From positions 64,001 to 128,000 of the forward strand of contig CAWCPV010000016.1 of the NCBI GenBank assembly GCA_963797555.1: a stretch of 64,000 nt of DNA. The letters run 5' to 3'. The DNA comes from an uncultured Gammaproteobacteria bacterium. Lineage in GTDB: Bacteria > Pseudomonadota > Gammaproteobacteria > CAWCPV01. Below are positions 37,388-58,951 of this stretch, in pieces. The position numbers were made by a program, and so were the translations under genes. Positions within the stretch are counted from its first letter, which is position 1. Each line of letters starts with the position of its first letter. The notes beneath the pieces were generated by a model, which made no database searches, was not told the origin of the DNA, and worked only from the letters and a program-made list of their open reading frames with translations.

Positions 37388-37400
37388 GGGGGTAACCTCT

Positions 37401-37445
37401 TCAGTGGTAATCGACGATCTCCACCTCATACGCATCGGTGGACAT
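37401..37445 (-). pseudogene. higB: HigB toxin reduced to 14 codons
   Basis: Reads MSTDAYEVEIVDYH*, the typical HigB C-terminus, just upstream of higA. Confidence 0.85.
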
Positions 37446-37653
37446 GATAACCCGCGACGTAATACGCCAAGCGTTAGATTTGCTCATGCGCTTGAAACCG
37501 GGCAATCCGGTCGAATGACCATCGGGTCCGATGGAACCAATCAGGCCGGGCGCCCCTCGCGGCGTGGCCCCTCAGATTCTAGTCGGACTGGAAGCTGTGC
37601 GTCCCTTGTACTAACATTCTTGGCTGTCTTTCGATCACACCCAAAGGTGCGCC

Positions 37654-38456: not shown

Positions 38457-38486
38457 ACCAATCACCGTACCGGCAAGGACCCCGCT

Positions 38487-42104: not shown

Positions 42105-42188
42105 CCATGCGGTTCTGGGATGGCCTGCTGATACCACTTCCTAATATTCAGTGGTATAAGAATGCCGAGACATACATGGAGACCGGAG

Positions 42189-42428
42189 ATGAAGAACACC
42201 AGCGTGACGCTCGGCGCGCACTTCGAGCAATTCATTGCCGAGCAGATTGCCCAAGGGCGCTACGGTTCCGCCAGTGAGGCGGTCCGCGCGGGATTGCGGC
42301 TTCTGGAGGAATACGAGACGAGACTGGCCGCCTTGCGTCAGGCGCTCAAGAACGGCGAAGAAAGCGGTCGGGCCGACTACTCCTTGCAAGGGCTGATCGA
42401 CGAGCTCGACAACGAAAGCACGCACTGA
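42189..42428 (+). CDS. parD: ParD-family antitoxin
   Basis: NTSVTLG.HFE.FI...GRY.SASE.VR.GLRLLE. Confidence 0.9.
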   Translation: MKNTSVTLGAHFEQFIAEQIAQGRYGSASEAVRAGLRLLEEYETRLAALRQALKNGEESGRADYSLQGLIDELDNESTH

Positions 42429-42760
42429 TGCCGCGGTTCGTGCTGACCAACGCCGCCAAGGCGGACCTCGAGTCCATCGGCCGCTATACGCAAGACAAGT
42501 GGGGCAGGGAGCAGCGCAACCGCTACCTGGCGCTCCTGGACGCGAGCTTTCACGACTTGGCAGGCAATCCGCTCCTAGGACGGGACTGTAGCGACATCCG
42601 CGCCGGCTATCGCCGCTATGGGTTCGGCAAGCACCTTGTCTTCTATCGCCAGAACGACAGCGATCACATCGAGATCGTCCGCATTCTGCATGAACGCATG
42701 GACGCGGAAGGTTCGCCTGTCCGCTTCCTGAACCAGCCCAGACGACCAGCTTGTGCTTAA
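42428..42760 (+). CDS. parE: ParE-family toxin
   Basis: LT.AA.ADL..I..YT...WG..Q, H.VFYR, IVRILHERMD. Confidence 0.9.
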   Translation: MPRFVLTNAAKADLESIGRYTQDKWGREQRNRYLALLDASFHDLAGNPLLGRDCSDIRAGYRRYGFGKHLVFYRQNDSDHIEIVRILHERMDAEGSPVRFLNQPRRPACA

Positions 42761-42816
42761 GCAAGGGAGGCGCGCTAGACTTCACGCAAGGTCAGACACA
42801 TTCAAAGGTGCATAGA

Positions 42817-43047
42817 ATGCGAGCCAACATCGTGCTGGACGAAGCGCTGGTCACGGAGGCCATGCGCTACGCCAATGTGAAGACCAAGCGGGAGCTGGTG
42901 GATCGGGCGCTGCGGGAGTTCGTCGCCGCGCGGCGCCGCCGCGATGTCTCGGATCTGTTCGGCAGGGTGCAGATCGATCCGGATTACGACTACAGGGCGG
43001 ACCGCGCAGCACTGAGGCCGTTAGACGAAGTTGGCGGCAGGCGATAG
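42817..43047 (+). CDS. VapB-like (DUF2191-type) antitoxin, orphan
   Basis: MRANIVLDEALV.EA......TKRELV..AL; ends DPDYDYR; no PIN gene follows. Confidence 0.8.
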   Translation: MRANIVLDEALVTEAMRYANVKTKRELVDRALREFVAARRRRDVSDLFGRVQIDPDYDYRADRAALRPLDEVGGRR

Positions 43048-43199
43048 AGCTTGCGACGCGGCTCTGAGTGAAGCCGTCCTCGACCGTCCGACCGACAGGC
43101 TGCGCAAAGCGGCCATGTACAACCGTCTCGGCCTCGCGGCCCGGTCCGTGGTTTAAGATCGCCACCACTCGCTCACGCAACGATTGGGAGCCACCCCCC

Positions 43200-43463
43200 A
43201 TGAACGCCGCACCTGGCTCGATCACTCCCCTCGAATACCTGGAAGGCCGCATCACCGTCCATCCGGACATCTGTAACGGGCATCCGACCATCCGCGGCAT
43301 GCGGATCACGGTCGAGACAGTTCTCGGTTTCCTGAGCGCCGGCGATTCCCAGGCGGACATCCTGCGCCAGTACCCGTCGCTGGAGCCGGCGGACATCGAC
43401 GCCTGCCTGCGCTTCGCCGCCGACTTGATGGCCCATCGTTACACCCTGCAAAGCGTGGGCTGA
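43200..43463 (+). CDS. DUF433 antitoxin
   Basis: RITVHPDICNGHPTIRGMRITV, YPSLE..DI.ACL.FA. Confidence 0.9.
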   Translation: MNAAPGSITPLEYLEGRITVHPDICNGHPTIRGMRITVETVLGFLSAGDSQADILRQYPSLEPADIDACLRFAADLMAHRYTLQSVG

Positions 43464-43794
43464 TGCCCCGCTTCGTGGTCTGCCGTAACGGTTCTCCATC
43501 CGGTCCGGCGAGGACTTTGTTCACATGCGGGACATCGGTGAGACCTGGACCGACTCCCAGATCTGGAAGTACGCCGAGGATCGAGACATGGTCATTGTCT
43601 CGAAAGATGCGGATTTCTCGGATCGGGCGATGATCAGCGTCCCGCCGCCGCGTATGGTCCACATCCGCTTCGGCAAGATGCGCATCCGGGACTTCCGTGA
43701 TCTGCTCTCCAGCATGTAGCCGCGCATCGTCGGCCTGAGCGCCAAGAACCGAATGGTGCAGTTCTATCAGGACCGAATCGAGACCATCGAGTGA
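43463..43794 (+). pseudogene. DUF5615 PIN-like toxin pseudogene
   Basis: D..IW.YA....VIVSKDADF; N-terminal DxN motif lost; in-frame TAG at 43717. Confidence 0.8.
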
Positions 43795-46098
43795 CCGGCC
43801 CGACCATTCTGGAACACCTGATCCAGCGGATTCGGCAAGCGGCCGTTTACAACCGCCACGACCTCGCAGCGCCGTCCGTGGTGTTGTGGACCGACGGAGA
43901 GCGCCTGTGGTCGAAGGTCATCCCTCTGCTGCGCGATGCCATGCCCGAGCTGCTGATTCTGGCCCCGAGATCGCCGACGAGCGCACCGGGCCGTCGACTT
44001 GGCTTCGTTATCGGCTCGCCCGCATCAATTGGCAAGAGACACCGGTCGTCTACCTGCCCGGGATACCGCGCCACGCATTTCGCGGTGCGGCCGGGTTCCC
44101 CGAGGCCGCGCGGCACCTATTCGCGCTTCAGTACCAGGGCCAGTTCTGGGGCCAATTGAACGGCAAGGACTGGACGCCGTCGGCCTTCCTGTCGTCACAG
44201 GAGGGCGGGCTCGGCCTCGATCTCGCCCGAGACCGCGCGACCCTGGAGGCGGTGAGCGCCCAACTGGTCCACGTGTTGCGCGCAACCCCCGAAAGCCTCG
44301 CGGGCCGGCGCCTCGAGGCGGCGGACTTCCATGGATTGGCGGCGGGCGATCCGGTCGGCCTGCTGTTGGAGTGGATGGCCGCCGAGGACGGCAAGCACGA
44401 CGACTGGCCCCTGAGCGCTGGACCGGATTCAAGGCCCTGTGCAAGCCGACCTTCGGTCTGGACCCAGACAAGGACGGCATCATCATCGCGGTAGACAAGC
44501 TGGTCGCGGGAGGAGGAATCTGGGATCAAGTGTGGACGCGTTACCGCCAGGCGCACAAGGCTTTCGCCGGGGTGCGCAAGGCACTGGATCTGGCGCGGCC
44601 GAAGGACCTGCTCGATGACGCCAACGACCGGATGCCGGCCGCGAACCGCAAGCAGGAGGCCGAACTGCGCTCGGGCCTCATGGGGCTCGCGGCGCTCCCG
44701 AAGGCCCGAGCACTGGAGAAGCTGAAGCAGCTCTGCGGGCAGCATGTAACTCGTGCGGATTCGCTCTGGGCGGACCTCGGCGAGGCGCCGCTGGCGCGGA
44801 CGGCCGTGCACTTGAAGACGCTAGTGGACGGCGCCGCCGCGGGGGGCTTGGGCAATGACTGGGAAGCGCTGGCCGCCGGCTACCTCGCCCGCGGCTGGCT
44901 CGTCGATGCTTCCGCTTGGCGCGCTTACGCTGCCGTGCGTGACGCACCGGATGTGGAGGCCGTGACGGCGGCACTGCGGGCCGTCTACCTGCCCTGGCTG
45001 GAGAACCTCGCGGAGCAGGTGCAGGGCTGGGCCGCCAGCTATCCCACCGCCGACCCGGCCAAGTGTCCCGTGTTCGGGCCTGCCCCCGGGACCGTGCTGG
45101 TGTTCGTGGACGGCCTTCGCTGCGACCTGGGCCTGGAGCTGGCTCGTTTGCTCCAAGAACACGGCCTTGCGGTGGAAATTGCAAGGCACTGGTCCGCCTT
45201 GCCCACGGTGACGGCGACGGCCAAGCCCGCGTGGCGACCGTTGGCGGACGGATTGGTCGGGAGCACTTTGTCAGAGGGGTTCGAGCCGCAGATCGCCGAG
45301 ACTGGAAAAAACCTCAAGACCCAAGCCTTCCGCAACCTGGTCGCCGACCTCGGCTGGCCCTGGCTGGAGCCGACGAGTACCGGCGACCCGACCGGCGCCG
45401 CATGGACCGAGACCGGTACCTTCGACCACGATGGCCATACGCAGGGGGCGCGCCTCGCCTGGCGGATGGAGGAGGACCTTCGGGCTGTCGGCCTGCGCGT
45501 ACGGGACCTGCTCCACGCCGGCTGGCAACGCGCGGTGCTGATCACGGATCACGGCTGGCTGCTCCTCCCCGGCGGACTGCCCAAGGTCGACCTACCGGCC
45601 CACCTGACCCAATCCCGCTGGCCCCGTTGCGCCGTGCCCCAGCCCGGTGCCCATCACGGGTTCGAGGAGTTGCCGTGGTTCTGGGGCGGGGGCCACTCCG
45701 TGGTCTGCGCACCGGGTGTCTCGGCCTTCAAGTCGGGCATCGAGTATGCCCACGGGGGCTTGACCCTGCAGGAAGCGCTGACGCCGATGCTGACGGTCAC
45801 AGCGGGCCAGCGGGCGGCGCAACCCATCGAGATCGCGAGCATCGAGTGGAAAGGCATGCGCCTGCGCGTGCAATTGAAGGGCGGGTTCTCCGGCACGGTC
45901 CTGGACATTCGCACGAAGCCGGCGGACGCGGGCTCTTCCGTGCTCGACTCCGAGCGGCGACTGCAGCCGCCCGGCGACGACGGGGCGGCCGCGCTGCTGG
46001 TGACGGACGACGAGTTCGAAGGTGCCGCCGCAGTGCTCGTGGTGATTCGGGACGGCGCGGTCGTGGCCAAGCAGCCGGTGACCATCGGTGGGGACTGA
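43791..46098 (+). CDS. pglZ: BREX PglZ phosphatase-fold protein, frameshifts ~43965 and ~44410
   Basis: VLWTD, QLNGKDWT, FVDGLR.D, LPTVT.TAK, ITDHGW, YAHGGLTLQE. Confidence 0.9.
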
Positions 46099-46102
46099 AT
46101 CC

Positions 46103-48181
46103 ATGCAGCTCGACGCGCTCGACCAGATTGCGGCCAGGGCATTCGACGGCTTCATCGTCCGCAAGGACCTGGTGCGCCGCTTCAAGGGCCAGTATCCGGT
46201 GCCTACCTATGTGGGCGAGTTCCTGCTCGGACGCTATTGCTCCAGCACCGACGAGCGCGAGATCCAGGAGGGCCTGGAGATCGTGCAGCGCCAGCTCGAA
46301 AGCCGCACCGTGCGCGCCGGGGAGGAGGAGCTGTTCAAGGCGCGCGCCAAGGAGCAGGGCCGGGTGAAGCTGATCGACCTGATTACCGCCCGCTTGGACG
46401 CCAAGAACGATTGCTTCGTCGCCGAGCTGCCGAGCCTGCGGATTAGAGATGTCCGGATCGGCGACGAGCTGGTCCACACTCACGAGCGGATGCTGACCGG
46501 CGGTTTCTACGCCGAGGTGGATCTCAGCTACGACCCGAGCATCGCCGAGGAGAAGCATGGTCGGCCCTTCGGCATCGAGTCCCTGCGGGAGATCCAGCTC
46601 TCCAAGCGCGACGCTCTGGACACCATGGCCCGCGGGAGGATGCTCTTCACCTTCGAAGAATGGCGCAATTTCCTGTTGCGCAGCATCGGCCTGGAGCCCG
46701 AGAGCCTGACCGCGCGCACTCGCGACGTGATGCTCCTGCGTATGGTCCCCTTCGTCGAGAACAACTACAACGCCATCGAGCTGGGACCCCGCGGGACCGG
46801 CAAGAGCCATCTCTTCCAGCAGGTCTCGCCGTATGCGCACCTGGTCTCCGGCGGCAAGGCGTCGGTTGCGAGGATGTTCGTCAACAACAGCACCGGGCAG
46901 CGTGGGCTGGTGTGCCAATACGACGTGGTCTGCTTCGACGAGGTCTCGGGCATCACCTTCGATCAGAAGGATGGCGTCAACATCATGAAGGGCTACATGG
47001 AGTCCGGAGAGTTCAGCCGGGGCAAAGAGAGCATCCGGGGCTTCGGCAGCATCTACATGGTCGGCAACTTCGACGTGGATGTCGCGCACCAGCAGCGCAT
47101 CGGCCATCTGTTCGGTCCCCTGCCCCCGGAGATGCGCGACGATACCGCCTTCATGGACCGCATCCACGCCTATCTGCCGGGGTGGGATATCCCCAAGGTC
47201 AGCCGCGAGCAGCTCACGGATCACTTCGGCCTGGTGAGCGATTTCCTGTCCTCCTGCTGGAATCACCTGCGCGCTTCCTCGCGGCTGCAGAAGCTCCAGG
47301 GGCGCATCCACTTCGGCGGGGCGCTGAGCGGGCGTGATACGAACGCCGTCCACAAGACCATGAACGGCCTGCTGAAGCTCATGTACCCATACTCGACCGT
47401 CGAGGGAGGGGAAGGCGCCGAATACGCGGACCGAGAGATCCCGGACGAGGCCATCGAGTGGGCCGCCCGGCTCGCGCTGGAATGCCGCCGCCGCGTCAAG
47501 GAGCAGCAGAAGCGCATCGGCTCCGCGGAGTTCCGCAATACCCACTTCAGCTTTCAACTGGGCGTCGACGGCATCGAGCAGTTCGTCGCCACACCGGAGC
47601 TACAGAGCGAGGACAGCATCGGCGACGATCCCTTGCCGCCCGGGCAGGTCTGGGTCCTGTCACCCGGCGGCCCGGATGAGCATCCCGGGCTGTTCAGGCT
47701 GGATGCCACCGAGGGACCCGGCTCGGGAGTGAAGATCCTCAACCAGCCGCCGCCCGCCCCTTTCAAGGAGAGCGTGCGCTGCGCCGAGCAGAACCTTTAC
47801 GCCAGGGCGAGGGAACTGGTGGGCGACCGGGACCCGAGGTCGCATGAGTTCTCGGTCCAGATGCGCGCCTTCGATGCCAGCAAGACCGGCACAGCGACGG
47901 GTGTCGCCGCGTTGCTCGCCCTGTGCTCGGCGCTGCTGGAGAGAAGCCTCAAGGGCGGCCTGATCGTTGTCGGCGGGCTCAATCTCGGCGGGTCCATCGA
48001 ACCCATCTACAACGCCGTCAGCGTCGTCGAGGCCGCCGCCGACAAGGGGGCGAAGATGGTTCTTCTGCCGGTGACCACCAGAAAGCAGCTCATCGAACTG
48101 GACGACGCCATCGCGACACGCGTCACCCTGGTCTTCTACTCGGACGCTCGGGACGCGCTGCTCAAGGCGCTCATCGAGTAG
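46103..48181 (+). CDS. brxL: BREX BrxL (AAA+ / Lon-like)
   Basis: VPTYV.EFLLG.YC, ELGPRGTGKSH, FDEV, MKGYMESG, AFMDR.H. Confidence 0.93.
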   Translation: MQLDALDQIAARAFDGFIVRKDLVRRFKGQYPVPTYVGEFLLGRYCSSTDEREIQEGLEIVQRQLESRTVRAGEEELFKARAKEQGRVKLIDLITARLDAKNDCFVAELPSLRIRDVRIGDELVHTHERMLTGGFYAEVDLSYDPSIAEEKHGRPFGIESLREIQLSKRDALDTMARGRMLFTFEEWRNFLLRSIGLEPESLTARTRDVMLLRMVPFVENNYNAIELGPRGTGKSHLFQQVSPYAHLVSGGKASVARMFVNNSTGQRGLVCQYDVVCFDEVSGITFDQKDGVNIMKGYMESGEFSRGKESIRGFGSIYMVGNFDVDVAHQQRIGHLFGPLPPEMRDDTAFMDRIHAYLPGWDIPKVSREQLTDHFGLVSDFLSSCWNHLRASSRLQKLQGRIHFGGALSGRDTNAVHKTMNGLLKLMYPYSTVEGGEGAEYADREIPDEAIEWAARLALECRRRVKEQQKRIGSAEFRNTHFSFQLGVDGIEQFVATPELQSEDSIGDDPLPPGQVWVLSPGGPDEHPGLFRLDATEGPGSGVKILNQPPPAPFKESVRCAEQNLYARARELVGDRDPRSHEFSVQMRAFDASKTGTATGVAALLALCSALLERSLKGGLIVVGGLNLGGSIEPIYNAVSVVEAAADKGAKMVLLPVTTRKQLIELDDAIATRVTLVFYSDARDALLKALIE

Positions 48182-48356
48182 GCGGCGGTTTTGCGTTGGA
48201 CGGGGGGCTCCGCCTATCCTTCGTGACCCGGCGCCGGAACGACGCCTCTAACCGGTCCTGGCGGACTTTCACCGCCCCGGAACATAAAAACGGTGGCGCC
48301 ATGACCGGTTTCCCTCCCGCAAAACGGGGGAGATCGGTTCTCCCTCCACGAGCCGT

Positions 48357-48431
48357 GTAGGTCGGGTTAGCGTAGCGTAACCCGACATCTCCCAACGTCG
48401 GGTTACGGCCTTGGGGCCTAACCCGACCTAC
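48357..48431. repeat. Inverted GTAG-type REP doublet
   Basis: gtaggtcgggttagcgtagcgtaacccgac ... gtcgggttacggccttggggcctaacccgacctac. Confidence 0.85.
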
Positions 48432-48585
48432 CCGTCTTATTCTTCGTTACCCCTCGCTTGAATTCGCACGACGCCTGGTAGGCAAGGGTTTGGCGGTTTC
48501 ATAGAAGATCGGAAAGGCCCTCGTGCTTCGGGAACAGATTTCAGTTCTCGCCATAGGAAGGTGTTCACCCGCTCCCTCTCCGCGG

Positions 48586-50748
48586 TCACAGCGACGCCGT
48601 GAACCCGATGGCCCGGCTGGTATGCGCGCCTTTCAGGCGGCTCTCGGTGTCGAGGCGCTCCAGCAGCGTCTCGGCGACCAGGTCCTCATCGCTCAGGCGA
48701 GTCTGACGCAGCACGGTGGCGAAGTCACCCGGCGTGAGGTTGTCGAGCCGCGCCAGCCGGAACAGGATCTGCTCACCCAGCCTTTCCGCGCCTGGAGCGG
48801 ACTCCCGGAGCGTCGCGAGGAACAGCCGCTCCGCCTGTTCGCGGGTCAGGAAGCGGTACTCCACCTTGAAGTCGAAGCGCCGCAGCACCGCCTCGTCGAG
48901 CTGCTCCATGAGGTTGGTGGCGCAGACGAAGATGCCCTCGAACTCCTCCAGTTGCTTGAGGAGCTCGTTCACCTGAGTGACCTCCCAAGAGCGAACGGCG
49001 CCCTGGCGGCTCCGGAGGAAGCTGTCCGCCTCGTCCAGCAGCAGAATGGCGCCTTCTGAGGCTGCTTGCCGGAACATGGCGGCGATGTTCTTCTCCGTCC
49101 GCCCGAGGTACATGTCGAGAAGATCCGAGGCGCGCCGCTCGATGAGCGGGCAGTCCAGATGCTCGGCAAGATGCTGGCCGAAGGCGGTCTTGCCGGTACC
49201 CGGTGGACCGTAGAGGCAGACCCGACCCTGCCGCGTGCGTCCGAGCCCCTCGGCCAGGGACCGCAGGTCGGTGCTGGCATGGCAGTAGTCGAGGTCGTAT
49301 GGGAGCGTCGGGAGCCCCCGAGGCTTCAGCGAAAAGGGAATTCCCCGCACCTCGAAGTGCCCGCGCAAGGTCCGTTCGAGGACCGCCTCCATCTCGCCGG
49401 GGGTGTCCGCGCCGAGGCGGGCCACCACTTTGCGGGCGCGTTCGATGTCGGCCGGGGTGAGGTGCTCGTTGCCGGCCAGGCGGTCGAGGGTCTCCTCGCT
49501 CACCGGCAAGTCCCCGAGGGCGCTCTGGAGCATGCCTCTTCGGACCTGCCGGGGCGGCACCGGAAGCTCCTGCACATAGTCGAAGCGGCGCAGGTAGGCG
49601 GGGTCGAACTGGTCCACGTGGTTGCTGAGCCAGAAGGTGGGTACCGGATTCTCTTCCAGGAGCTGGTTCACCCAGCCCTTGGTGCGGCCCTCGGAGGAGG
49701 ATCGACCGAGCCAGAAAGCGCTCGGCCGCGGGAAAACGTCCTCCACCTCGTCGAACAGGATGAGGTGGCGGGGATGCCGGGAGAGCATGCGCTGGCACAG
49801 GCGGTAGGCCCGGAAGCGGTCGGCGCCCTCGATGCCGTCGCCGTCCTCGTCTCCCGAGGCCACCTCGTAGAGGGTCGCCCCGAGCGCTTCGGAGAGCGCC
49901 CGCGCAAGCTCGGTCTTGCCGGTCCCCGACCGGCCGTGGAGGAGGATGTTGACGCCCCGAGCGCGGGTCTCCAGGACACGCTGGATATATCGGAGCAGAA
50001 GCTCCACCGGCTCCTTCAGGTGGGGATACTGGTCGAGGCGTACCCTCGCCCGGGGGCTCGGGCGGAACTGGGCGACGAACAGGGCGTGGAGATCGCGCTG
50101 CTCGGTCAGCAACGCACTGCCCGCGCCCTTGAGGAGCTCCAGCTTGCCCGCTAGTGCATAGGACCCGCGGTGGTCCACCTCGACCAGGCCCGCAGCACGC
50201 AAGGTGCCCTCCCGATGCAGGGCGCACTCGATGTCCGGGCGCGCCAGCTCGAGCACCGCGGAGAGCAAGCGGACGAGATCGCCACTATTCAGATCCCCAG
50301 CGCGTTCCCCGCACTCCCGCAGCAGGTTGTCGCTATGGAGCACCACCGTGAACAGCAGCAGTTCGGTCTCCGCCGCGCTGAGATCGAGCAGCTTCGCCAG
50401 ACGGCGGACGTTGCGCATCAGCGGACCGGAGCGCCGCGGCGGCCCGCTCGGCGTCTCGCGCAGTCGGCTCCGCACCGCCTGCCGGACCTGGGCGGAACTC
50501 AGGTCCTCCAGGGTTTCCGCATCGAGCCCGAGCAGGGGGCACAGGAGGTCCTGGTCCACTATCGGCGGAACAATGCGCGGCCGCCTCATGCCGTAAGCCA
50601 AAAGCCGCAGGGACCAGAGTCGAGACTGGGCCTCGAAGCCTTCCACGCTGCCCGCACCGAACGAACCGCGACGACGACGTCTCGATGGGGTGATCCTCTC
50701 TGCCAGGAATGGTAGGGACCATTCTGGCCCAGGATCGCGACAAATCAT
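48586..50748 (-). CDS. Tandem-AAA ATPase (two SpoVK/CDC48-like modules); start uncertain
   Basis: GRSGTGKT/LFDEVED/AYLRRFD and GPPGTGKT/LLDEADS/AVLRRFD, terminal IGF. Confidence 0.88.
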   Translation of the reverse strand: MICRDPGPEWSLPFLAERITPSRRRRRGSFGAGSVEGFEAQSRLWSLRLLAYGMRRPRIVPPIVDQDLLCPLLGLDAETLEDLSSAQVRQAVRSRLRETPSGPPRRSGPLMRNVRRLAKLLDLSAAETELLLFTVVLHSDNLLRECGERAGDLNSGDLVRLLSAVLELARPDIECALHREGTLRAAGLVEVDHRGSYALAGKLELLKGAGSALLTEQRDLHALFVAQFRPSPRARVRLDQYPHLKEPVELLLRYIQRVLETRARGVNILLHGRSGTGKTELARALSEALGATLYEVASGDEDGDGIEGADRFRAYRLCQRMLSRHPRHLILFDEVEDVFPRPSAFWLGRSSSEGRTKGWVNQLLEENPVPTFWLSNHVDQFDPAYLRRFDYVQELPVPPRQVRRGMLQSALGDLPVSEETLDRLAGNEHLTPADIERARKVVARLGADTPGEMEAVLERTLRGHFEVRGIPFSLKPRGLPTLPYDLDYCHASTDLRSLAEGLGRTRQGRVCLYGPPGTGKTAFGQHLAEHLDCPLIERRASDLLDMYLGRTEKNIAAMFRQAASEGAILLLDEADSFLRSRQGAVRSWEVTQVNELLKQLEEFEGIFVCATNLMEQLDEAVLRRFDFKVEYRFLTREQAERLFLATLRESAPGAERLGEQILFRLARLDNLTPGDFATVLRQTRLSDEDLVAETLLERLDTESRLKGAHTSRAIGFTASL

Positions 50749-50774
50749 GTCACCTGCTGTCGTGATTTGTCGCA
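50737..50774. promoter_or_regulatory. Palindromic operator in the divergent AAA/WYL promoter
   Basis: Perfect 11-bp IR gcgacaaatca-N15-tgatttgtcgc; regulatory role inferred. Confidence 0.7.
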
Positions 50775-50824
50775 ACGGGTGCTTACGCTTAAACTGAACG
50801 ACTGCGGAGACGCAGAGGCGAGCC

Positions 50825-51850
50825 ATGAAGACTAAGACCGACACCTTGCTACGGCAGTGGGCGATGCTGCAGCACATCCCTCGCTACCCGAGGACCATCA
50901 CCACCCAGACCCTCAAAGACCGCCTGGCCGACGAGGGGCACGAGGTCTCCAAACGCACCGTGGAGCGGGACCTGGTGAAGCTGTCGCGAGTCTTCCGCCT
51001 GGGCTCGGAGACCCGGAACCGGGTGCAGCACTGGTTCTGGCCGGAGAACCTGGGCGTGTTCGACATTCCGGGCATGGGTCCGGCGGCGGCCCTCGCCTTC
51101 CGGCTGGCGGAGGCTCATCTCCGGCCGCTTCTTCCTCCGGCGACCCTGCAGTTGCTCGGCCCCTACTTCGAGCGCGCCAAGGAGATCCTGGACGCCGGCA
51201 ATTCAGGCCCCAAGGGTTGGCAGGACAAGGTCCGGGTGATTCCGCGCGGCCCCGAGCTTCGGGCGCCACAGGTCAAGCCCGAGGTCCAGCAGGCGGTCTA
51301 CCAGGCGCTGCTGGAGGAGCGACGGCTCCGGGTGGACTACCATCCGAAGGGCGCCGATCAGTTCCAGACTTACGAGGTGGGTCCCCTCGGGCTGGTGGTG
51401 CGGGAGGGCGTGCTCTATCTGGTCTCGACCCTGTGGGACTACACGGACATTAAGCAGCTCGCTTGTCATCGGATGACGACGGCGAACGTGCTGGAGAAGC
51501 GGGTGCGGCGGCCGCAGGGGTTCGATCTGGACCGCTACATCCGGGGCCAAGGGGAGTTCGCGTATCCCACCGGAAAGGGGAAGGTCCGACTGCGCGCTCT
51601 GTTCGACGAAGCGGCCGCGGAGCACCTGTACGAGCGACCGCTCGCAGACGACCAAGAGCTGAAGACGCGGCGCGACGGCCGAGTGCTCCTGACCGCCACG
51701 GTGCTCGACACCTACGAGCTGCGCTGGTGGCTGCTGGGGTTCGGGGAGCAGGTGGAGGTGGTGGGGCCGAAGGGGCTCAGGCGGGAGTTCGCCCGTATCA
51801 GTCAGGCGATGGCGGGGCGCTATTCAGGATCCGGAACGGAAGCAGCGTAG
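50825..51850 (+). CDS. wHTH-WYL-WCX transcriptional regulator (BrxR/CapW-like)
   Basis: VSKRTVERDL..L HTH, V.PLGLV......YL, HRM, L.WWLLGFG..VEV..P..LR. Confidence 0.92.
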   Translation: MKTKTDTLLRQWAMLQHIPRYPRTITTQTLKDRLADEGHEVSKRTVERDLVKLSRVFRLGSETRNRVQHWFWPENLGVFDIPGMGPAAALAFRLAEAHLRPLLPPATLQLLGPYFERAKEILDAGNSGPKGWQDKVRVIPRGPELRAPQVKPEVQQAVYQALLEERRLRVDYHPKGADQFQTYEVGPLGLVVREGVLYLVSTLWDYTDIKQLACHRMTTANVLEKRVRRPQGFDLDRYIRGQGEFAYPTGKGKVRLRALFDEAAAEHLYERPLADDQELKTRRDGRVLLTATVLDTYELRWWLLGFGEQVEVVGPKGLRREFARISQAMAGRYSGSGTEAA

Positions 51851-52082
51851 TTGGTTGCCCGAGGGACCCTTGGGCCGGCGACCCAGGGCCGCGAGGCGCG
51901 CCATCCGCGGCCGCGCGGGAGCCTTGGAAATCAAACAGAAGCGGAACACCAGGTGCCATTTGACCATGGGCCAGTCCGAACAGGCGGCTTGCCGAACTGG
52001 GAGCCACGCCTGCCAGGGGACCGGTCCGGTCCCAACATAGAAGACGCGGTTGCGGTGTTCGCCGCGTGGTAGACTGCGTACG

Positions 52083-52367
52083 ATGGCTACAGTGACTTTC
52101 GACACCCTCAAGTACGTCAAGCGGCTCAAGGAATCCGGGCTTCCCGAAGGTCAGGCGGAGGCACAGGCCGAAGCGCTGGCCGACGTGCTGCAGACCAACC
52201 TCACCGACCTCGCCACACAGCGAGACCTGCGGGCTCTAGAGGACCGTTTGATTGCCCGGATAGATAAGCTGGATGCCCGGCTGAGCGGTGAGATCGCCCT
52301 CCTCAAGTGGATGCTCGGCCTGCTGCTGGGCGGCGTCGCGGCACTAATTCTGAAGGCATTCTTCTGA
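52083..52367 (+). CDS. DUF1640/CCDC90 coiled-coil protein
   Basis: FDTLKYVKRL...G....QAEA, LAT..DL, LLKWM plus C-terminal TM helix. Confidence 0.85.
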   Translation: MATVTFDTLKYVKRLKESGLPEGQAEAQAEALADVLQTNLTDLATQRDLRALEDRLIARIDKLDARLSGEIALLKWMLGLLLGGVAALILKAFF

Positions 52368-52659: not shown

Positions 52660-52776
52660 AAGGGTTTGCGCTGGCACCCGTCGAAGCTGCCCAGCCCCGA
52701 GACCGTCCGATTGACGGACACCCCGTAGCTTCCTATGCTGGAGGCTGTCAACCATAGCGTCCGGCCTACATTGGCC

Positions 52777-53430
52777 ATGTCCCTCGCGCTGAAGGTCACC
52801 ACTGCCGACGGAAAGGAATTCGCCGGCCCCTACTTGCTGCGGGTGGGTGGGTGGACCGAGGAGCGCTATTTCGCCGAGGCGCCTGAATCACAAATCGTCG
52901 AATTCGATGACGGGGACCTCATCGTGCCGTCTCCTCTCAACATCCACCACCAAGACTTGGTCGGCTTTCTGTCGTTCCTGCTGCGCGGATACGTAAGCTC
53001 GAAGGGCTTGGGGCGGGTCTTCAATGGTCCAGCCGTCGTCCGGCTTCGCCCCGGCCTCGACTACGAGCCCGACATCTTCGTCGTGCTGGCCGAACAGTTG
53101 GCTCAGATCGGCAAGCAGTACATCTCGGGTGGGCCAGCGTTTCTCGTCGAGGTCATCTCGCCCGGCGGACGCAGTTACGACTTGCATTCCAAGGCGGACA
53201 ATTATCGCCGATACGGCGTCCGCGAGTACTGGGCTATCGACCCGGAAACACGCACGCTCCATCAGCACAACCTTTCCGATCACGATGAAGGCCGTTACCT
53301 CGTCAGAGAATACGTCAGTGGCCGGGTGGAAAGCACCGTGCTGCCCGGGTTCTGGATCGACGCCTCGTGGCTCTGGCAGGAGCCCTTACCGGAGGGGTTC
53401 TCGCTCCTGGAAGAGTTGCTTCGGTCCTGA
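52777..53430 (+). CDS. Uma2-family endonuclease
   Basis: E..DG, P...HQ, PDI.V, VEV.SP, K...Y...GV.EYW.IDP, S.VLPGF. Confidence 0.9.
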   Translation: MSLALKVTTADGKEFAGPYLLRVGGWTEERYFAEAPESQIVEFDDGDLIVPSPLNIHHQDLVGFLSFLLRGYVSSKGLGRVFNGPAVVRLRPGLDYEPDIFVVLAEQLAQIGKQYISGGPAFLVEVISPGGRSYDLHSKADNYRRYGVREYWAIDPETRTLHQHNLSDHDEGRYLVREYVSGRVESTVLPGFWIDASWLWQEPLPEGFSLLEELLRS

Positions 53431-53586
53431 GAGCGCGCTGTTCCTGGCACAGGACATGCCTTGCCAGTCAGTGGCCGTGAGGCGGAGCTTGGGACGGCGG
53501 TGCGCTGCGGATACCGGCCTCGGTCGTGTCGTGGGAAATAAAACAACGACCCCAATCACGTTGAAATGTGCGCGCGAGCTTGGTAC

Positions 53587-53717
53587 TTACACACAATTCG
53601 TCATTCCGTACAGGGAGTGTACGGAATCCAGGGGCAAGGATGCCGAGCCATGCCGTCCGTGGCCTCTGGATTCCGGCTTCCCAGCCGGAATGACAGTTGA
53701 GACCAAGAGTTGTGTAA
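53587..53717. repeat. Palindromic REP/MITE-like element, copy 3
   Basis: ttacacacaa...ttgtgtaa ends and the same two hairpins as copy 1. Confidence 0.82.
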
Positions 53718-53736
53718 CGGCAAGGGCCTACGGGGT

Positions 53737-54147
53737 TTACAGATGGCTCAGGGTCACCGGCCGAACCAGCTCGGAATAGCGTGCCAGGAAGGCATCCGAG
53801 GTCACCAGGTAGGCGGGCAGCGTTTGTGCTTGAGCGACCAACAGGCGGTCGAACCGGTCGTGGTGGTGCCAAGGTAAGCGTGCGACAGCAAACGCGTGGG
53901 CTGCGGCGATAGGCAGCTCGGTGAATCCGGTATCGATTGCCACTCGGTGCACCTCGTCGGGCGGAACGGAAAAGTCGCCCCGTCCCAGTGAGGTCTTGAT
54001 GGCGATCTCCCAAATACGGGCAGCGCTGAACAGGATCTCACACTCGGGATCCCGAAGCTGCGCATGTACACCGCCGGGCAGCCGCTCTGGATCGATGACG
54101 GCTGCCAGCAGAACGTTCGTATGGATCAAGAGCTGTTACCCGGACAC
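53737..54147 (-). pseudogene. vapC: VapC PIN toxin, probably inactivated
   Basis: WEIAIK, HHDRFDRLLVAQA; N-terminus reads VSG*QLLIHTN (stop codon, first catalytic Asp replaced by His). Confidence 0.75.
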
Positions 54148-54387
54148 CTAATCCTCCCCTTCGAACATGCGCCGAATCTCATTGGCATGCAGGGTGTCGA
54201 AATCTTCGGGAACTTCGAAGTGGCCCCTGCCGAGACCGAGCTGCCGCGGTTGCTTGCGCGGCTGCAGCGGCACCAGGCGCGCGATCGGCTTGCCGGCCTT
54301 GGCGATGATGATCTCCTCGCCCGCGGCCGCCTCCTCAACGTAGCAGGACAGGTGGGTCTTGGCCTCGTGGATGTTGATGGTCCTCAC
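54148..54387 (-). CDS. Phd/YefM antitoxin
   Basis: INIHEAKTHLS, GEEIII.KAGKPIARLVP. Confidence 0.9.
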   Translation of the reverse strand: MRTINIHEAKTHLSCYVEEAAAGEEIIIAKAGKPIARLVPLQPRKQPRQLGLGRGHFEVPEDFDTLHANEIRRMFEGED

Positions 54388-54592
54388 GGCGGAAACCCCG
54401 ACGGAGCAACTGACCGGACCAAACCTTAGTTCATGCCTGGATCGGTGTCGATGGTGCCCGACGCCCGAAAAGAATTGCGTCCCCGTTTACATCCCAAAGG
54501 CAAGACGAAAGACGCGACCCCAACCCGATCCCGCGCGGGGTATGCCGGCTGGTGCGGGGGCTACCGGCCAACCCCGAGCACCGCCTGGATTG

Positions 54593-55314
54593 TCAGCCGA
54601 ACAGGTCCCCTGACGGCAGGGTTTCACGGCGGGGCTTGGGTGGCCGGCCGGCCTTGCCGGGGCTCGCCTTGCGTCCGAGTGCCGCTTCCACCTGCAGCCG
54701 GAAGCGTTCGCCGCCGAGCGCGAAGTTTCCGTTGGTGGCCAAGCGGATCTCATCAACCGTCTCCGGATCGAGCTCGCTGCGGAACAGCAGCCGATACGCT
54801 TCCCGCGTGCGGTCTCCGAACGGCCAAGCGCGAGGTACTGGGCATGCGGTACCACGTGCTTGGAAGTCTTGCCTTCAGCGTTCGTCCGGTAGCTGGACCA
54901 GCGGTAATAGCGCGGATGACTGACCATCTGCGCCCGCACGGGATTCAGCTCGATGTAGCGGTAACAGGCCAGCACATAGTTCTCTTCCTGCGCCACCCAG
55001 GATCGAAAGCGTCCCTCCCACAGCGTCCCGCTGCGCCGATAGGTACGATTGACGTACTGCACATAGCGCTGGCCCAGGTGCTTCATCAACAGCGAAGCGC
55101 TGTCGGCTTTCTGCGGCGTGAGCAACAAGTGCACATGGTTGGTCATCAGCACGTAGGCGTGGACCGCGCAGCCGAACTTCGTTGCATTCTCGGCCAAACG
55201 CTCCAGGTAAAGTACGTAGTCTTCGTCGGCGAAGAAGCAGGCGTCGCGGTTGTGACCGCGCTGGATCAGGTGCAGCGGAACACCGGCAAGCGCAATGCGA
55301 GGGCGGCGGGGCAT
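54593..55314 (-). mobile_element. REP-associated tyrosine transposase (RAYT, Y1 HUH), frameshift ~54805
   Basis: MPRRPR, H.IQRG.NR..CF, YVLMTNHVHLL, G.LWEGRF, YIELNPVRA, WSSY. Confidence 0.92.
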
Positions 55315-55322
55315 ACGCGCGC

Positions 55323-55556
55323 TTAGTGGTTCTCGGCCTCCGCCGCAAAAACCTCGGCCGTCAGCCCGGCCGCCCGAATCAGGCTGCGCAGCGTTCCCCT
55401 GGCGACTTCCTTGTGATCCGGCACCGACAGCGTCGCGATACGGTCGGGCTTGACGAGGATAATGTGGCTGCCGCGCCGTCGCACCACTGAACCGCCCAGC
55501 CTCTCGAACACATGAACGACCTCGCGCCCGCTGAGGACCGGCAGGACCGGCGTCAC
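55323..55556 (-). CDS. hicA: HicA toxin
   Basis: LPVLSGREV, R.RGSH, VP.H.E...GTL.S.IR. Confidence 0.88.
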   Translation of the reverse strand: MTPVLPVLSGREVVHVFERLGGSVVRRRGSHIILVKPDRIATLSVPDHKEVARGTLRSLIRAAGLTAEVFAAEAENH

Positions 55557-55759
55557 GCGGAAACCTCGATCTGACGCGTCTCGATGGTCCGGGGAAGCCC
55601 CCGCTCGGCCCGTACTTCCAGGCACAGCTTGATGACCTCGGCGATATTGGCGAGCGCCTCATCTTTCGTGGCTCCCTGGCTAACGCAACCGGGAATCGCC
55701 GGGCACTCCACGATCCAGATGCCATCTTCGTCCCTGTCGATCGTCACGTTGAACTTCAT
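55553..55759 (-). CDS. hicB: HicB antitoxin (short form)
   Basis: DEDG.W.VECP.IPGC.SQG.T..EAL.NI. Confidence 0.9.
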   Translation of the reverse strand: MKFNVTIDRDEDGIWIVECPAIPGCVSQGATKDEALANIAEVIKLCLEVRAERGLPRTIETRQIEVSA

Positions 55760-55969
55760 CGCATCGCACTCCGCGGGGTGGGGTGTGTCATCATGCCAAA
55801 TCAAGAGGCGCCGCCAAGACAATGGTGGTCTGTCCCCGATCGCCCATGGTTGCGGGCACGGTCCACAGAAATCGTTCAGGGTCCGCCTGCGATTCGAAGT
55901 AGCCACGTTGGCAAACCATTTCCCTCGCTGCCACACTAACGAGGTGACACCGACAGAGGAGTCCAAGCC

Positions 55970-56332
55970 GTGAGCGCCACACCGACGCCACTTGCCCTCG
56001 AGCGAGAAGCTCCCCCCCTGCGCCAAGACGCGAACGGAGTGATCCGCGTCGCGCAAACCCGCGTGACGCTCGAGAGCATCATCTCCCTCTTCGAGCAAGG
56101 GGCGAGTCCCGAAGAGATTGCGCTGCGCTACGATGTCCTGGATCTGCATGACATCTACGCGACCCTGAGCTACTACCTCGGTCATCGGCAACAGACGCAG
56201 GAGTACCTGGACCGCGCACGTCAAGTATCGCTCGGGGCACGGCGTGACGCGGAGCGCCGCTCAGGCGCTGCGGAGATACGCGAGCGTCTGATGCGCTACC
56301 GGAACCGCCCCGATGCTCAGTCTGCTGGCTGA
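55970..56332 (+). CDS. DUF433 antitoxin
   Basis: TRVTLE.I...F..G.SPEEI...Y..L.L.DIYA..SYY. Confidence 0.88.
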   Translation: MSATPTPLALEREAPPLRQDANGVIRVAQTRVTLESIISLFEQGASPEEIALRYDVLDLHDIYATLSYYLGHRQQTQEYLDRARQVSLGARRDAERRSGAAEIRERLMRYRNRPDAQSAG

Positions 56333-56663
56333 CGAAAACCTCGACGCGAACATTATGCGCGGGGTCCTGCGACGCGTCCGCGACATCGACGTCGTCCGAG
56401 TGCAGGACGTAGGCCTTACCGGGACCGACGATTCGAAGGTTCTTGCATGGGCCGCCGAGCACGGCCGCGTGCTGGTCACACACGATGTCGAGACGGTGAC
56501 GCGGTTTGCCCTCGAGCGCGTCCATGCGGGTCTGCCGATGCCCGGCGTGATTGAGATCATCGCATCGGCCTCGATCGGCAAAGCTGTGGACGACCTGGCA
56601 TTGGTGCTCGAATGCTTGGCGGAAGGCGAGCTGTACGACCAGGTTCTCTACCTACCGCTGTAG
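56313..56663 (+). CDS. DUF5615 PIN-like toxin
   Basis: LLADEN, GL.G.DD..VL.WA....R.LVTHD. Confidence 0.88.
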   Translation: MLSLLADENLDANIMRGVLRRVRDIDVVRVQDVGLTGTDDSKVLAWAAEHGRVLVTHDVETVTRFALERVHAGLPMPGVIEIIASASIGKAVDDLALVLECLAEGELYDQVLYLPL

Positions 56664-56836
56664 TCGGGCAATGGAGGCCGATACGTGATCACCGTGCCGC
56701 CGGGGTAACGCGATAGGAACTCTCCTAGCTTCGCACCCGAACCCGACCCGTACGAGAAGACAATCGGGGTCTGTCGCCGATTATCGCGAAACGGTCTCGC
56801 ATGGCCCGCACGATACGACGTCCTCGCCGGAGGTTA

Positions 56837-56888
56837 CAAGGCGAGAACTGACCCTGGATCCCCAAGGCGAGAACTGACCCTGGATCCC
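56837..56888. repeat. Perfect 26-bp tandem duplication
   Basis: caaggcgagaactgaccctggatccc x2. Confidence 0.92.
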
Positions 56889-57167
56889 GCTGGATCCCGC
56901 CCTCGGAGCCGGGCTGAAGGGACTCCGCGTCATCCTGGGCGCCGGCCCAGGCACCGGCGTTCGGGAGCGTACCAGGCGGGTCATGCGGCCTGCCATTGGA
57001 GAGCAACGGGTTCCCCACAATGCCTGCGGGGGTGACCAGCGTTTGTGTACCCGCCAGAAGAAAACGACGACGATCCATCTGAGACCTCCGTGCCGAAGGC
57101 CGTGGGGCGTAGCTCCTTGCGCCAGCACCGCCAAGTGCACAGCGCAGCGTGCTCCCCACTTGGATAC

Positions 57168-57878
57168 CTATGGTGTCACTGCGTGCGCCCCGGCGCCGCC
57201 CAGTCCCCCTCCCTGCAGGCCCCAGTATGTCGCCTGATAATCAAGGTCGCTTCTAAGATTGGCGCCATCCATTAGGCGTAGCGCCGCGATCCCCTTGTCC
57301 AGGAGTGGACCCAGGTTATCGCTTGTCTGGATTGCCACCAAGGGCCACGGCACAACAGCCAGTTCGTCCAAGTCGTCGCTCCCGCCTGCCCCAAGTAATT
57401 CCTCCGGCCACGGTTCTTCAGGAAACTTGCGGAACATGGAAGCGGCGGACGGATTGGCGACCGATGAATAGATGGCGAGCGCAATTTTGCTGCACGTCTG
57501 CGAAGGCCAAACACCCCCCACGGCCTTGCATCGCGCTCGAGCAAAATATCCGAATGGTGTCCAAAATAGGCCATCAGGATTGAACTTCATAAAACAAATA
57601 GCCCATACGAAATGGTCATTTGTCTGCGAAAACTCTTCTCTCCCCTCGATGAATTGACCCCAGTAAATACGAGGCAAGATGAAACCCTCATCGCCCACCC
57701 AGCTCCAGGTTTCGCAAGTAAATTTCTTCGTGTAGCCAATCACCTTACACGTAAGTCCTTTCTCTTCGAGCACTTGCCTGATAGTCTCCGCTAACCAGTA
57801 CATGCTGCGAAAGTACTTGTTGGCTTGGTAGTAGGCCTTGGCGCATTCCAGCCCCCTGTCCGTCATTGCATTGTTCAC
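57168..57878 (-). CDS. Hypothetical protein (236 aa), aromatic-rich, lower GC
   Basis: GTG start with GGAGG RBS; follows the interrupted nuclease gene; no family recognised. Confidence 0.72.
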   Translation of the reverse strand: MNNAMTDRGLECAKAYYQANKYFRSMYWLAETIRQVLEEKGLTCKVIGYTKKFTCETWSWVGDEGFILPRIYWGQFIEGREEFSQTNDHFVWAICFMKFNPDGLFWTPFGYFARARCKAVGGVWPSQTCSKIALAIYSSVANPSAASMFRKFPEEPWPEELLGAGGSDDLDELAVVPWPLVAIQTSDNLGPLLDKGIAALRLMDGANLRSDLDYQATYWGLQGGGLGGAGAHAVTP

Positions 57879-58230
57879 CCTTAGTCCTCCGTGTTTTGTT
57901 GGAAAATTATCAAACACTCTGACCGTGAAACGGCGCAGGAAACGTTTCCAACTCGCCACCGAAGCGCGCCAAGTACTTCTGTGAACATTGCGTCGCCATC
58001 GGAGCGTAATTGACGAGCGGGCCACAACACGTCCAAGTCAGAGTCTCAGCGGCCGCGGCAAATGCCGTGGGGCGCCAAATGGGAAATTGGTGGGCACCGC
58101 TAAATCGCCCGAACCCTTTATGCTCGCACAGATCCCGGGTAACCGTTCAGACCCTCCCACCAGTTGATCGATGCGTTAAGAGCGCGTCCAGCGCAGCAGA
58201 GCCGCTCGGCTTGTCGTACACTCCCGGCTC

Positions 58231-58949: not shown

Positions 58950-58951
58950 AC

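Follow-up and report, generated by a model that had tools for sequence, protein, structure and literature searches.

In this study, we analyzed a divergent gene pair in 64,000 nucleotides of DNA from an uncultured Gammaproteobacteria bacterium (GenBank assembly GCA_963797555.1, contig CAWCPV010000016.1, positions 64,001 to 128,000; the whole stretch, with a G+C content of 65%, is called the window below). One gene of the pair encodes an ATPase with two classic-clade AAA+ modules in tandem, the other a regulator with a WYL domain, and a 17-bp palindromic box is located upstream of both. The pair adjoins a type 1 bacteriophage exclusion (BREX) locus on the plus strand, as assigned with PADLOC and Pfam; brxL converges on the ATPase gene, and the other brx and pgl genes lie upstream of it. 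In these respects the locus agrees with an earlier description made from the letters of the window alone (the sequence-only reading), which had reported a protein of about 700 residues with two AAA modules, head-to-head with a winged helix-turn-helix (wHTH)-WYL-WCX gene and next to BREX. Not picked up at that time were a linked gene for a DUF2779 nuclease and several signs of decay in this copy. Our preferred reading, to which we assign a probability of about 0.6, is that the pair consists of a local regulatory switch of the DriD/DdaA type and its main target, the tandem AAA+ ATPase.

The ATPase and its divergent regulator

Pfam detected two PF00004 modules (D1 and D2) in the ATPase, and in an alignment with 19 full-length homologs the columns of Walker A, Walker B, sensor-1 and the double arginine (arginine finger) are invariant in both. 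The same alignment contains an aromatic-hydrophobic-glycine pore loop in D2 and no canonical one in D1; a pattern search for pore loops was too narrow (82 of 143 homologs unmatched) and was not used. D1 and D2 are preceded by a helical N-domain with a winged-helix-like part and followed by a C-terminal IGF tail. The N-terminal 255 residues were modelled with a predicted local distance difference test score (pLDDT) of 86 as helices plus a small hairpin. No Foldseek match at E 0.001 or better was obtained for this model, and a wide structure comparison returned winged-helix proteins only, over residues 102-222 (best Z 5.4; BrxC at Z 5.0), matches too weak for naming a fold.

The tripeptide IGF or MGF stands 0-5 residues from the C-terminus and is near-universal among the homologs (48589-48630 in the window); GF is found within the last 14 residues in 135 of 143 full-length homologs, preceded by Ile in 97. 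ClpX docks on ClpP via IGF loops, and we take the tail of the ATPase to be reminiscent of such a loop. VAT, Cdc48 and the D2 module of p97 are the best sequence matches among solved structures. Because of its two-ring classic AAA+ layout, the intact D1, the canonical pore loop of D2 and the conserved IGF tail, the protein is most likely a protein unfoldase or remodeller. PADLOC-DB v2.0.0 and NCBIfam returned generic AAA matches only; the matches to the PADLOC models IetA, TRIP13, mad8, DolB and PDC-M37B comprise a partial P-loop or D2 only, and membership in these families was rejected.

In the regulator, Pfam identified a WYL domain (PF13280, 5.2e-14) and a WCX domain (PF25583, 4.7e-18) and gave no match for the wHTH, which was recognized instead in an AlphaFold2 (AF2) model (pLDDT 90.8) and by Foldseek. 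In this model, the wHTH with three helices and a hairpin occupies residues 4-72 and is followed by WYL and WCX, with three further helices (86-99, 105-124 and 129-135) between wHTH and WYL. According to the accessible parts of PMC10853764 and PMC13004042, DriD is built from a wHTH, a three-helix bundle, WYL and WCX, and PafBC shares this layout more than WYL repressors do.

Comparisons with solved structures gave the same order of relatives by profile and by fold. In a single-sequence search, DriD entries were closest (about 5e-6), with BrxR and CapW absent at E 0.01, and the first 100 residues searched alone against the PDB gave nothing useful. A profile built from an alignment of 49 WYL proteins encoded beside ATPase homologs matched DriD chains at 6e-21 to 3e-20, PafBC at 9e-19, CapW at 9e-5 and BrxR of E. 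fergusonii at 2.5e-4. With Foldseek, the AF2 model matched DriD at 1.1e-15 over its full length (343 columns), PafBC at 8.5e-13, CapW at 4.6e-8 and BrxR at 1.9e-6. The identity to DriD is only about 21%. Two arginines of the third helix, R44 and R48, are nearly invariant among the 49 ATPase-linked proteins; in DriD, Arg37 and Arg41 read guanines of the box (PMC10853764, in the part accessible), and two conserved arginines in helix 3 are also emphasized for DdaA in the accessible part of the paper describing it. By profile, predicted fold and domain order, the WYL protein is nearest to DriD and PafBC, activators that are themselves activated by single-stranded DNA (ssDNA). The own genome of the bacterium encodes two distant WYL paralogs in addition.

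The box and the geometry of the promoter

Perfect arms of 11 nt are located at 50737-50747 and 50763-50773 and can be extended to 16 nt at 88%. Shuffling the 301-bp region 5000 times gave a perfect 11-bp inverted repeat with a loop of 30 nt or less in 8 cases; four such repeats exist in the whole 64-kb window. The perfect inverted repeat noted in the sequence-only reading is therefore real, but its left arm contains the ATG of the 720-residue call (50748-50746), so that with the genes as called it is not strictly intergenic. Its left side reads GCGACA-N5-TGTCAC, exactly as had been stated, and the meaningful unit of the supposed perfect operator is this 17-bp box, not the 11-bp arms. The second arm consists of TGATT and the half-site TGTCGC (50768-50773), and the distal half-site shows no match to the box; it may exert weak control of the WYL promoter or have no role.

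The word is the same as that of published motifs as far as these could be compared: for DriD, a consensus of ATACGAC-N7-GTCGTAT and the crystallized site ATACGACAGTTACTGTCGTAT are given in PMC10853764, and for DdaA the motif CGWCA-N5-TGWCG is given in the paper describing it, both in the parts accessible. For the family, we used 80 loci from species-representative genomes and 80 from metagenomes, with ATPase homologs of 36-46% identity; in the metagenome set, all loci among the matches listed are at 46% identity or less, and the closer relatives P0004-P0006 are 81-83% identical. When the regions before the WYL genes were scanned for inverted repeats, two of the closest loci of divergent layout gave GCGACA-N5-TGTCGC. 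With one mismatch or fewer, the box was found 111 times in 1,439,132 bp of related loci and 0-9 times in 20 shuffles. The region upstream of the ATPase open reading frame (ORF) was 160 bp or longer in 143 loci; 72 of them carry a box with at most two mismatches between -160 and +110, and 40 of these sites are centered at -70 to -30 from the ATPase start, mostly at -46 to -54.

The occurrence of the box before the ATPase gene was counted by gene content. At the same threshold of two mismatches, it was present in 27 of 40 loci with the WYL gene only, in 18 of 20 with both WYL and DUF2779 genes (45/60 for all WYL-containing loci together) and in all three with DUF2779 only. The figure was 20/62 for variable loci with neither gene, 1/19 for a clade with a conserved ("core") gene context described below, and 6/140 for control segments inside the ATPase gene. 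Where a boxed ATPase gene had no WYL gene in the fetched locus, four of five genomes encode a strong WYL homolog (E 1e-101 or better) elsewhere or just outside.

Alignment of 40 promoters on the box uncovered a -10-like GAnAAT at +18 to +23 from the box center, i.e., 9 nt after the box (column frequencies A 0.75, A 0.60, A 0.70 and T 0.72), and no -35 hexamer conserved at any usual spacing. In the window, a -10-like hexamer, a predicted transcription start and a Shine-Dalgarno-like sequence follow the box in this order on the minus strand, and the box itself takes the would-be -35 position. The accessible text of PMC13004042 describes the same arrangement for DriD: the site overlaps the -35 position, the promoters are without recognizable -35 elements, the distance from site to -10 is identical across all regulated promoters, and in Caulobacter driD is divergent from a DriD-activated operon, with one box common to both. 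In the promoter printed in the methods of that paper, we read TGTCGC, 9 nt and ACAATC on the strand facing CCNA_03891. For WYL repressors, the accessible sources place CapW sites across the -10, and the BrxR repeats are located downstream of the BrxR promoter. The geometry of the predicted promoter thus points to activation.

Contigs of four public sequencing runs (X1-X4) were aligned on 50400-51100, and the comparison of the intergenic region on the DNA level draws on these Logan contigs alone. No contig from the four runs aligned over 50736-50783 at 80% likeness. In one X2 contig the match ends at 50725, and its unaligned end contains GCGACA at the offset seen in the window (11 nt), with a diverged spacer.

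Boxes also occur at further genes of the related loci. They precede genes for a NERD-UvrD helicase, PP2C, an FtsZ-like GTPase and a Pol-beta nucleotidyltransferase, and also genes for two Fic proteins, SLOG, NADAR, two SIR2 proteins, UvrD, PcfJ and a second tandem AAA protein. At one locus (L010), a 213-residue protein with a tubulin/FtsZ GTPase domain (1112-1753, minus strand) is encoded divergently from the ATPase gene and shares with it a perfect box at 1788-1804. One metagenome locus (L089) contains two paralogous tandem-AAA genes (190-2343 and 4620-6839); the first of them has a box whose center is 96 nt before the start of the ORF, and nearby are a WYL gene and a metallophosphatase gene that also has a box.

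Relatives, islands and a linked nuclease

The ATPase family is large, patchy and mobile. At least 5158 of 8000 scored candidates are homologs at E 0.001 or better, and the 120 homologs listed all score at least 519 bits and mostly have about 700 residues; their source names are "SpoVK/Ycf46/Vps4 family" or "ATP-binding protein" only. When 61 genomes from the same class were compared, the own genome included, six contained a match at E 1e-30 or better. With the threshold at E 1e-40, 20 of 72,556 plasmid records and 1 of 50,697 phage records gave matches.

For the flanks, 131 of 190 proteins were scanned in list order after near-duplicate loci had been dropped. Matches to PADLOC models at 1e-10 were obtained for 20 of the 131, a figure that comes with no background control and includes single PADLOC HMM matches, which are promiscuous. 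Among the models are PD-T4-6, GmrSD-like Orf5/HEC-06, PDC-S26, mad2/3, PDC-M27C, ZacA and PD-T4-3; no core BREX protein was found among the 131 proteins. A location of the pair in a defense-type island is supported. A Sphaerotilus plasmid (NZ_CP035707.1, 25812-39758; locus L175) carries WYL, AAA and Sir2 genes after pglZ and brxD of BREX-2 according to its RefSeq annotation, a second case of the pair beside BREX, with a different BREX type.

Because of its many open forks and long branches, a FastTree tree of 71 ATPases was consulted on two points only, how WYL linkage is scattered and the core clade. In this tree, the WYL-linked rows are scattered (12 changes for 16 adjacent rows), and a Burkholderiales clade is separate (18 rows, 17 of them in core context, support 100). 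This clade comprises 21 loci (L012-L041, e.g., L033:5449-7863) from Sphaerotilaceae and Comamonadaceae, has a longer ATPase of about 770-800 residues and lies next to genes for DUF3567, DUF3108, GGDEF-EAL, homocysteine methyltransferase and sometimes RecQ, with no WYL gene. It looks like a domesticated branch of the family.

Neighbors within three genes were clustered for the 156 loci in which the ATPase gene was found. A WYL gene is present in 60 of them, in every orientation, and a DUF2779 protein of about 500 residues in 25; in 20 loci the latter gene comes immediately after the ATPase gene in the same orientation, with the WYL gene as the usual next neighbor. Among the variable loci, 49 have flanks of 3 kb or more on either side; of these, 22 contained WYL only, 7 WYL and DUF2779, 1 DUF2779 only and 19 neither. 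On a Rhodoferax antarcticus plasmid, the RefSeq annotation lists an ATP-binding protein, DUF2779 and WYL in a row.

DUF2779 (PF11074) is described as a family of RNase H-like 3'-5' exonucleases fused to a PD-(D/E)XK-like domain (PMC3985635) and as an uncharacterized fusion of Cas4-like and DEDD(y) domains (PMC13621843), and the accessible parts of both papers give no partner or regulator for it. In the window, the protein combines a Cas4-like PD-(D/E)XK nuclease with four Cys and a DEDDy 3'-5' exonuclease in one fusion; the four Cys and the catalytic D/E/K and DEDDy columns are all kept. Alignment columns 262-310 (about 50 residues), which are present in 11 ATPase-linked homologs, are missing. 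It matches most homologs encoded beside the ATPase with 300-416 bits, two partial matches giving 90-112 bits. The own genome contains one copy of DUF2779 and one ATPase of this family, and none of 14 control genomes contains DUF2779. The ATPase gene, the WYL gene and the box are adjacent in the window, and the shortened DUF2779 gene is 10 kb off on the strand opposite to the WYL gene. Before this gene lies a degenerate box, followed after 10 nt by TAGAGT (63346-63341); its three mismatches make it indistinguishable from chance on its own, and its position is suggestive.

The remaining features of the window are given in Table 1. Genes for TacA-like, ParE and DUF433 proteins are interspersed among the pieces of the BREX genes (33767-46098), which look fragmented. 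Between the WYL and DUF2779 genes (52735-60566), genes for Uma2 (PADLOC PDC-S03), an IS200-like Y1 transposase, a HicB-like protein and a DUF5615/PIN-like protein, a fragment with a DruA domain, and an IS66 transposase gene were identified. Between the converging brxL and ATPase genes, 48350-48440 contains two adjacent hairpins from one word of 9-10 nt (GTCGGGTTA / TAACCCGAC), which could be a repetitive extragenic palindromic (REP)-like element or a bidirectional terminator; this region is one of the only four perfect 11-bp inverted repeats of the window.

Table 1. Positions of genes and sequence elements in the window
Feature	Position	Strand	Remarks
brxA	32001	+	PADLOC/Pfam
brxB	32788	+	PADLOC/Pfam
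brxC	33767-36013, plus fragment 36196-36546	+	model positions 254-894 and 960-1070 of 1146
pglX, two pieces	38487-40109 and 40804-42144	+	model positions 2-471 and 757-1024 of 1125
pglZ	43999-46098	+	model matched from position 210 only
brxL	46088-48181	+	converges on ATPase gene
Tandem AAA ORF, long form	48586-50877	-	763 codons
Tandem classic-clade AAA+ ATPase as called	48586-50748	-	720 residues from ATG 50748 (protein database, P0003)
Ancestral start-codon site	50683-50686	-	ATCG in window, ATG in relatives; base 50684 extra
Shine-Dalgarno-like GAGAGG	50695-50700	-	8 nt before ancestral ATG; read from sequence
Predicted ATPase transcription start	about 50714	-	predicted
-10-like CAGAAT of predicted ATPase promoter	50721-50726	-	10 nt after box; assigned from position
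DriD/DdaA-type box GCGACA-AATCA-TGTCAC	50737-50753		1 mismatch to GCGACA-N5-TGTCGC; at would-be -35 position
Second 11-nt arm (TGATT + TGTCGC)	50763-50773		faces WYL gene
Candidate WYL -10 TACGCT	50784-50789	+	10 nt after half-site; weak
Alternative WYL -10 TAAACT	50790-50795	+	read from sequence
WYL regulator gene	50825-51850	+	341 residues; divergent from ATPase gene
DUF2779 gene	61959-63302	-	10 kb from WYL gene, opposite strand to WYL gene
Degenerate box before DUF2779 gene	63357-63373	-	proximal half TGTCGC perfect, distal half 3/6; read by eye

Activation, biological role and the state of this copy

From these data we infer by analogy how the pair may work. A dimer of the WYL protein would read GCGACA-N5-TGTCAC with its two recognition-helix arginines, and the box would stand at the -35 position, the promoter itself having a -10 only. 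When ssDNA accumulates, through DNA damage or phage replication, it would bind to the WYL domains, and the ssDNA-bound regulator would recruit RNA polymerase and thereby turn on the divergent ATPase gene. In other genomes, the ATPase would be co-transcribed with the Cas4-like/DEDDy double nuclease, and the cassette may serve as a damage- or infection-induced DNA-processing module of defense islands, in which DNA exposed by an ATPase that strips off or unfolds proteins would be degraded by the nuclease. In the window, this cassette appears rearranged and partly decayed. What the sequences show directly is the gene content, the type of the regulator, the box, the geometry of the promoter and the recurrence of the linkage; the response to ssDNA, an unfoldase activity, joint action with the nuclease and the role in the cell are inferred. 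The control of the divergent tandem-AAA gene by a WYL sensor through a palindromic site, as put forward in the sequence-only reading, is thus supported by what the sequence predicts.

The switch itself is of a known kind, that of the DriD/DdaA-type activators; for its pairing with the tandem ATPase, no description was found in the papers searched. DriD of Caulobacter crescentus (PDB 8TP8, 7TZV and 9PFV), the best profile and fold match, likewise combines wHTH, three-helix bundle (3HB), WYL and WCX in one chain, uses the box core CGAC-N7-GTCG at the -35 position of promoters without -35, at a fixed distance from -10, and is divergent from a target operon. It is, however, a chromosomal master regulator of didA, bapE, recA, recJ and dnaG, and its divergent operon encodes a protein without assigned function and a putative TonB-dependent transporter, not an AAA ATPase. 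The regulator in the window looks local instead, because the own genome shows no regulon. DdaA, a WYL activator of Moraxellaceae that could be compared by motif and description, has the motif of the window box and, according to the accessible text, activates damage-response, restriction-modification (RM) and CRISPR-Cas genes. Before its capture by Moraxellaceae it was a putative regulator of neighboring genes without assigned function (PMC12392091), which fits the locus analyzed here. The words AAA and ATPase are absent from the main text of either DdaA paper, and the neighbors drawn in Supplementary Fig. S4B may or may not include this ATPase.

On the side of the ATPase, two known systems are near. 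D2 aligns with the IetA models of IetAS (Gao_Iet; PADLOC 1.1e-40), but the NCBIfam model IteA NF042959 gives 121 bits against a cut-off of 510, over D2 only, and IetA has one AAA module and the protease partner IetS, whereas the window protein has two modules, a different N-domain and no adjacent protease gene. Cdc48, p97 and VAT also combine two classic-clade modules in one chain, with an analogous N-D1-D2 order; they differ in that TIGR01243 gives 75 bits against a cut-off of 802, their N-domain is a double-psi barrel and the N-domain model of the ATPase is helical with a winged-helix-like part, and D1 of the ATPase is without a canonical pore loop. The nuclease is the same Cas4-like and DEDD(y) fusion as in PF11074 proteins such as MMSYN1_0389 of JCVI-syn3.0 (PMC13621843, PMC3985635); while the accessible parts of these papers name no partner or regulator for it, here the family is linked to a tandem AAA ATPase and a DriD-type WYL regulator. 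The pair had not been recognized as a named system in the sequence-only reading, and this still applies: PADLOC-DB v2.0.0 (2023), which does not cover systems named after 2023, contains no model for it, NCBIfam gave no match to a named system, and the paper searches yielded no link of a WYL regulator with this ATPase or with DUF2779.

Several observations weigh against the local switch as we propose it. The choice of an activator over a repressor is drawn from homology and promoter geometry only, and a search for RNA sequencing runs that contain the stretch listed none. A scan of 48100-52200 for consensus sigma-70 promoters found nothing, and the window deviates from its relatives in having one mismatch in the box and the -10 at a distance of 10 nt instead of 9. 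In the own genome, the count of 21 boxes with one mismatch or fewer in 5.3 Mb does not exceed that in shuffled sequence, and a search there for further boxed promoters gave none that was convincing. At family level, 19 of the 49 variable loci have neither WYL nor DUF2779, and the PADLOC figure for the flanks is subject to the limits stated above. In at least the Burkholderiales clade the ATPase may have a housekeeping role, because its context there is conserved, non-island and without box.

Other counter-evidence concerns this copy. The part conserved with homologs begins near 50686; comparison with relatives places the real start there, where the window has TCG at the codon at which the homologs P0005 and P0006 (82% and 81% identity) start with MRRRRRGS. 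Read in another frame, the window gives MVPTIPGREDHPIE, which matches the N-terminus MVLTILGREDHPM of P0004, and therefore an indel of 1 nt at the ATG is indicated. The letter 50684 is missing from all four contigs that cover the site (two from X3 and one each from X2 and X4), which come from related strains about 88-90% alike; the sole near-identical run (X1) covers 50893-51100 only and misses the site, and an assembly error could account for the extra base. With transcription starting near 50714, as predicted, the ATG at 50748 would be ruled out as start.

Taken together, three signs of decay are apparent from the sequence of this copy: the lost start codon, the displaced and shortened nuclease gene and the fragmented BREX neighbors. 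With the ancestral ATG of the ATPase gene lost, and with DUF2779 lacking about 50 linker residues and lying 10 kb away behind insertion sequence (IS) elements, this copy may not work at all. The module in this genome could accordingly be a non-functional relic of a decaying island, with an ATPase untranslated from its own promoter, a crippled and displaced nuclease and a broken BREX, which we regard as a serious possibility at somewhat below even odds. It would account for the extra base, which removes an ATG kept by four related contigs from three runs and by three close homologs, for a 720-residue call that starts inside the box and upstream of the predicted transcription start, for the IS200-like and IS66 transposase genes between the genes of the cassette, and for the splitting of the brxC, pglX and pglZ matches over separate ORFs. 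Set against this are the ATPase frame, which is open over 763 codons with all motifs intact, so that any decay would be recent, the possible assembly error, and in-frame alternative starts such as GTG 50646. A relic in this genome would moreover be compatible with a local DriD/DdaA-type switch in the family as a whole. For experiments, the copy of the window is a poor model, and the cassette of the Rhodoferax plasmid is intact by annotation.

On the role of the cassette, defense or repair, both readings stand. The ATPase, with or without the nuclease, could belong to a DNA-damage repair module rather than to immunity, removing stalled or cross-linked proteins and resecting ends within an SOS-independent regulon of the DriD/DdaA type. 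The regulons of DriD, DdaA and PafBC are damage responses in the sources as far as accessible, DUF2779 is similar in its C-terminal half to MrfB, an exonuclease of mitomycin repair (PMC13621843, accessible part), UvrD-type helicases are among the boxed neighbors, and in the Burkholderiales clade the ATPase gene is chromosomal and conserved, with RecQ no more than three genes away in four loci. We nevertheless consider pure repair rather unlikely in view of the patchy distribution in genomes of the same class, the presence of the gene on plasmids and in variable islands together with SIR2, Fic, GmrSD-like and other conflict genes, and the near absence of the box from the core clade. Regulation does not separate the two roles, because DdaA, by the accessible account, also activates RM and CRISPR genes.

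Improbable is the alternative favored in the sequence-only reading, namely that a repressor of the BrxR/CapW type on a palindromic operator silences a toxic anti-phage effector or BREX accessory until a nucleic-acid signal arrives. BrxR and CapW are, like the WYL protein, wHTH-WYL-WCX dimeric regulators of defense islands that respond to ssDNA or DNA damage, and both remain distant but significant matches; the locus abuts BREX and one plasmid has WYL-AAA beside BREX-2, the box could block the promoter if the -10 were wrongly assigned, and a possible -35 of the WYL promoter coincides in part with the second half-site. DriD, however, is better by at least 15 orders of magnitude by profile and at least 7 by fold, and the WYL model contains the three-helix bundle of the activator class. 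The box is located upstream of a conserved -10 with no conserved -35, unlike repressor sites, which overlap the -10 or follow the promoter in the accessible reports. The solved BrxR and CapW chains have 266-288 residues compared to 341, and contact DNA via Ser/Gln/Ser in the accessible sources instead of an Arg pair. BrxR precedes brxA, whereas the WYL gene here lies beyond brxL and not at the head of a BREX operon. No box with two or fewer mismatches is present near brxA or elsewhere in the BREX region, save a chance-level site at 43364, so that a role as BREX regulator or BREX accessory is unsupported.

Returning to the local DriD/DdaA-type switch, one tentative extension, which we consider doubtful at present, is that a new effector system, triggered by ssDNA and widely mobile, is made up of the ATPase and the Cas4/DEDDy double nuclease. 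The DriD-type activator would turn on a Cdc48-like unfoldase that strips proteins from phage or damaged DNA, perhaps handing them to ClpP via the IGF tail, and the exonuclease would destroy the exposed DNA. If true, this would be a bacterial counterpart of the p97-dependent clearing of protein-DNA complexes, used for immunity.

Descriptions of WYL regulators in defense islands have to date concerned repressors (BrxR, CapW), and the activators DriD, DdaA and PafBC are known mainly from chromosomal damage regulons. The locus analyzed here is one of a large set of mobile cassettes with a predicted DriD-type activator, an uncharacterized two-ring ATPase and often a double nuclease. If our reading is true, a known ssDNA-activated switch would extend to a new class of effectors, a Cdc48-like unfoldase role in bacterial DNA conflict or repair would gain a testable target, and the promoter signature of box, 9 nt and -10 could be used for finding further members.

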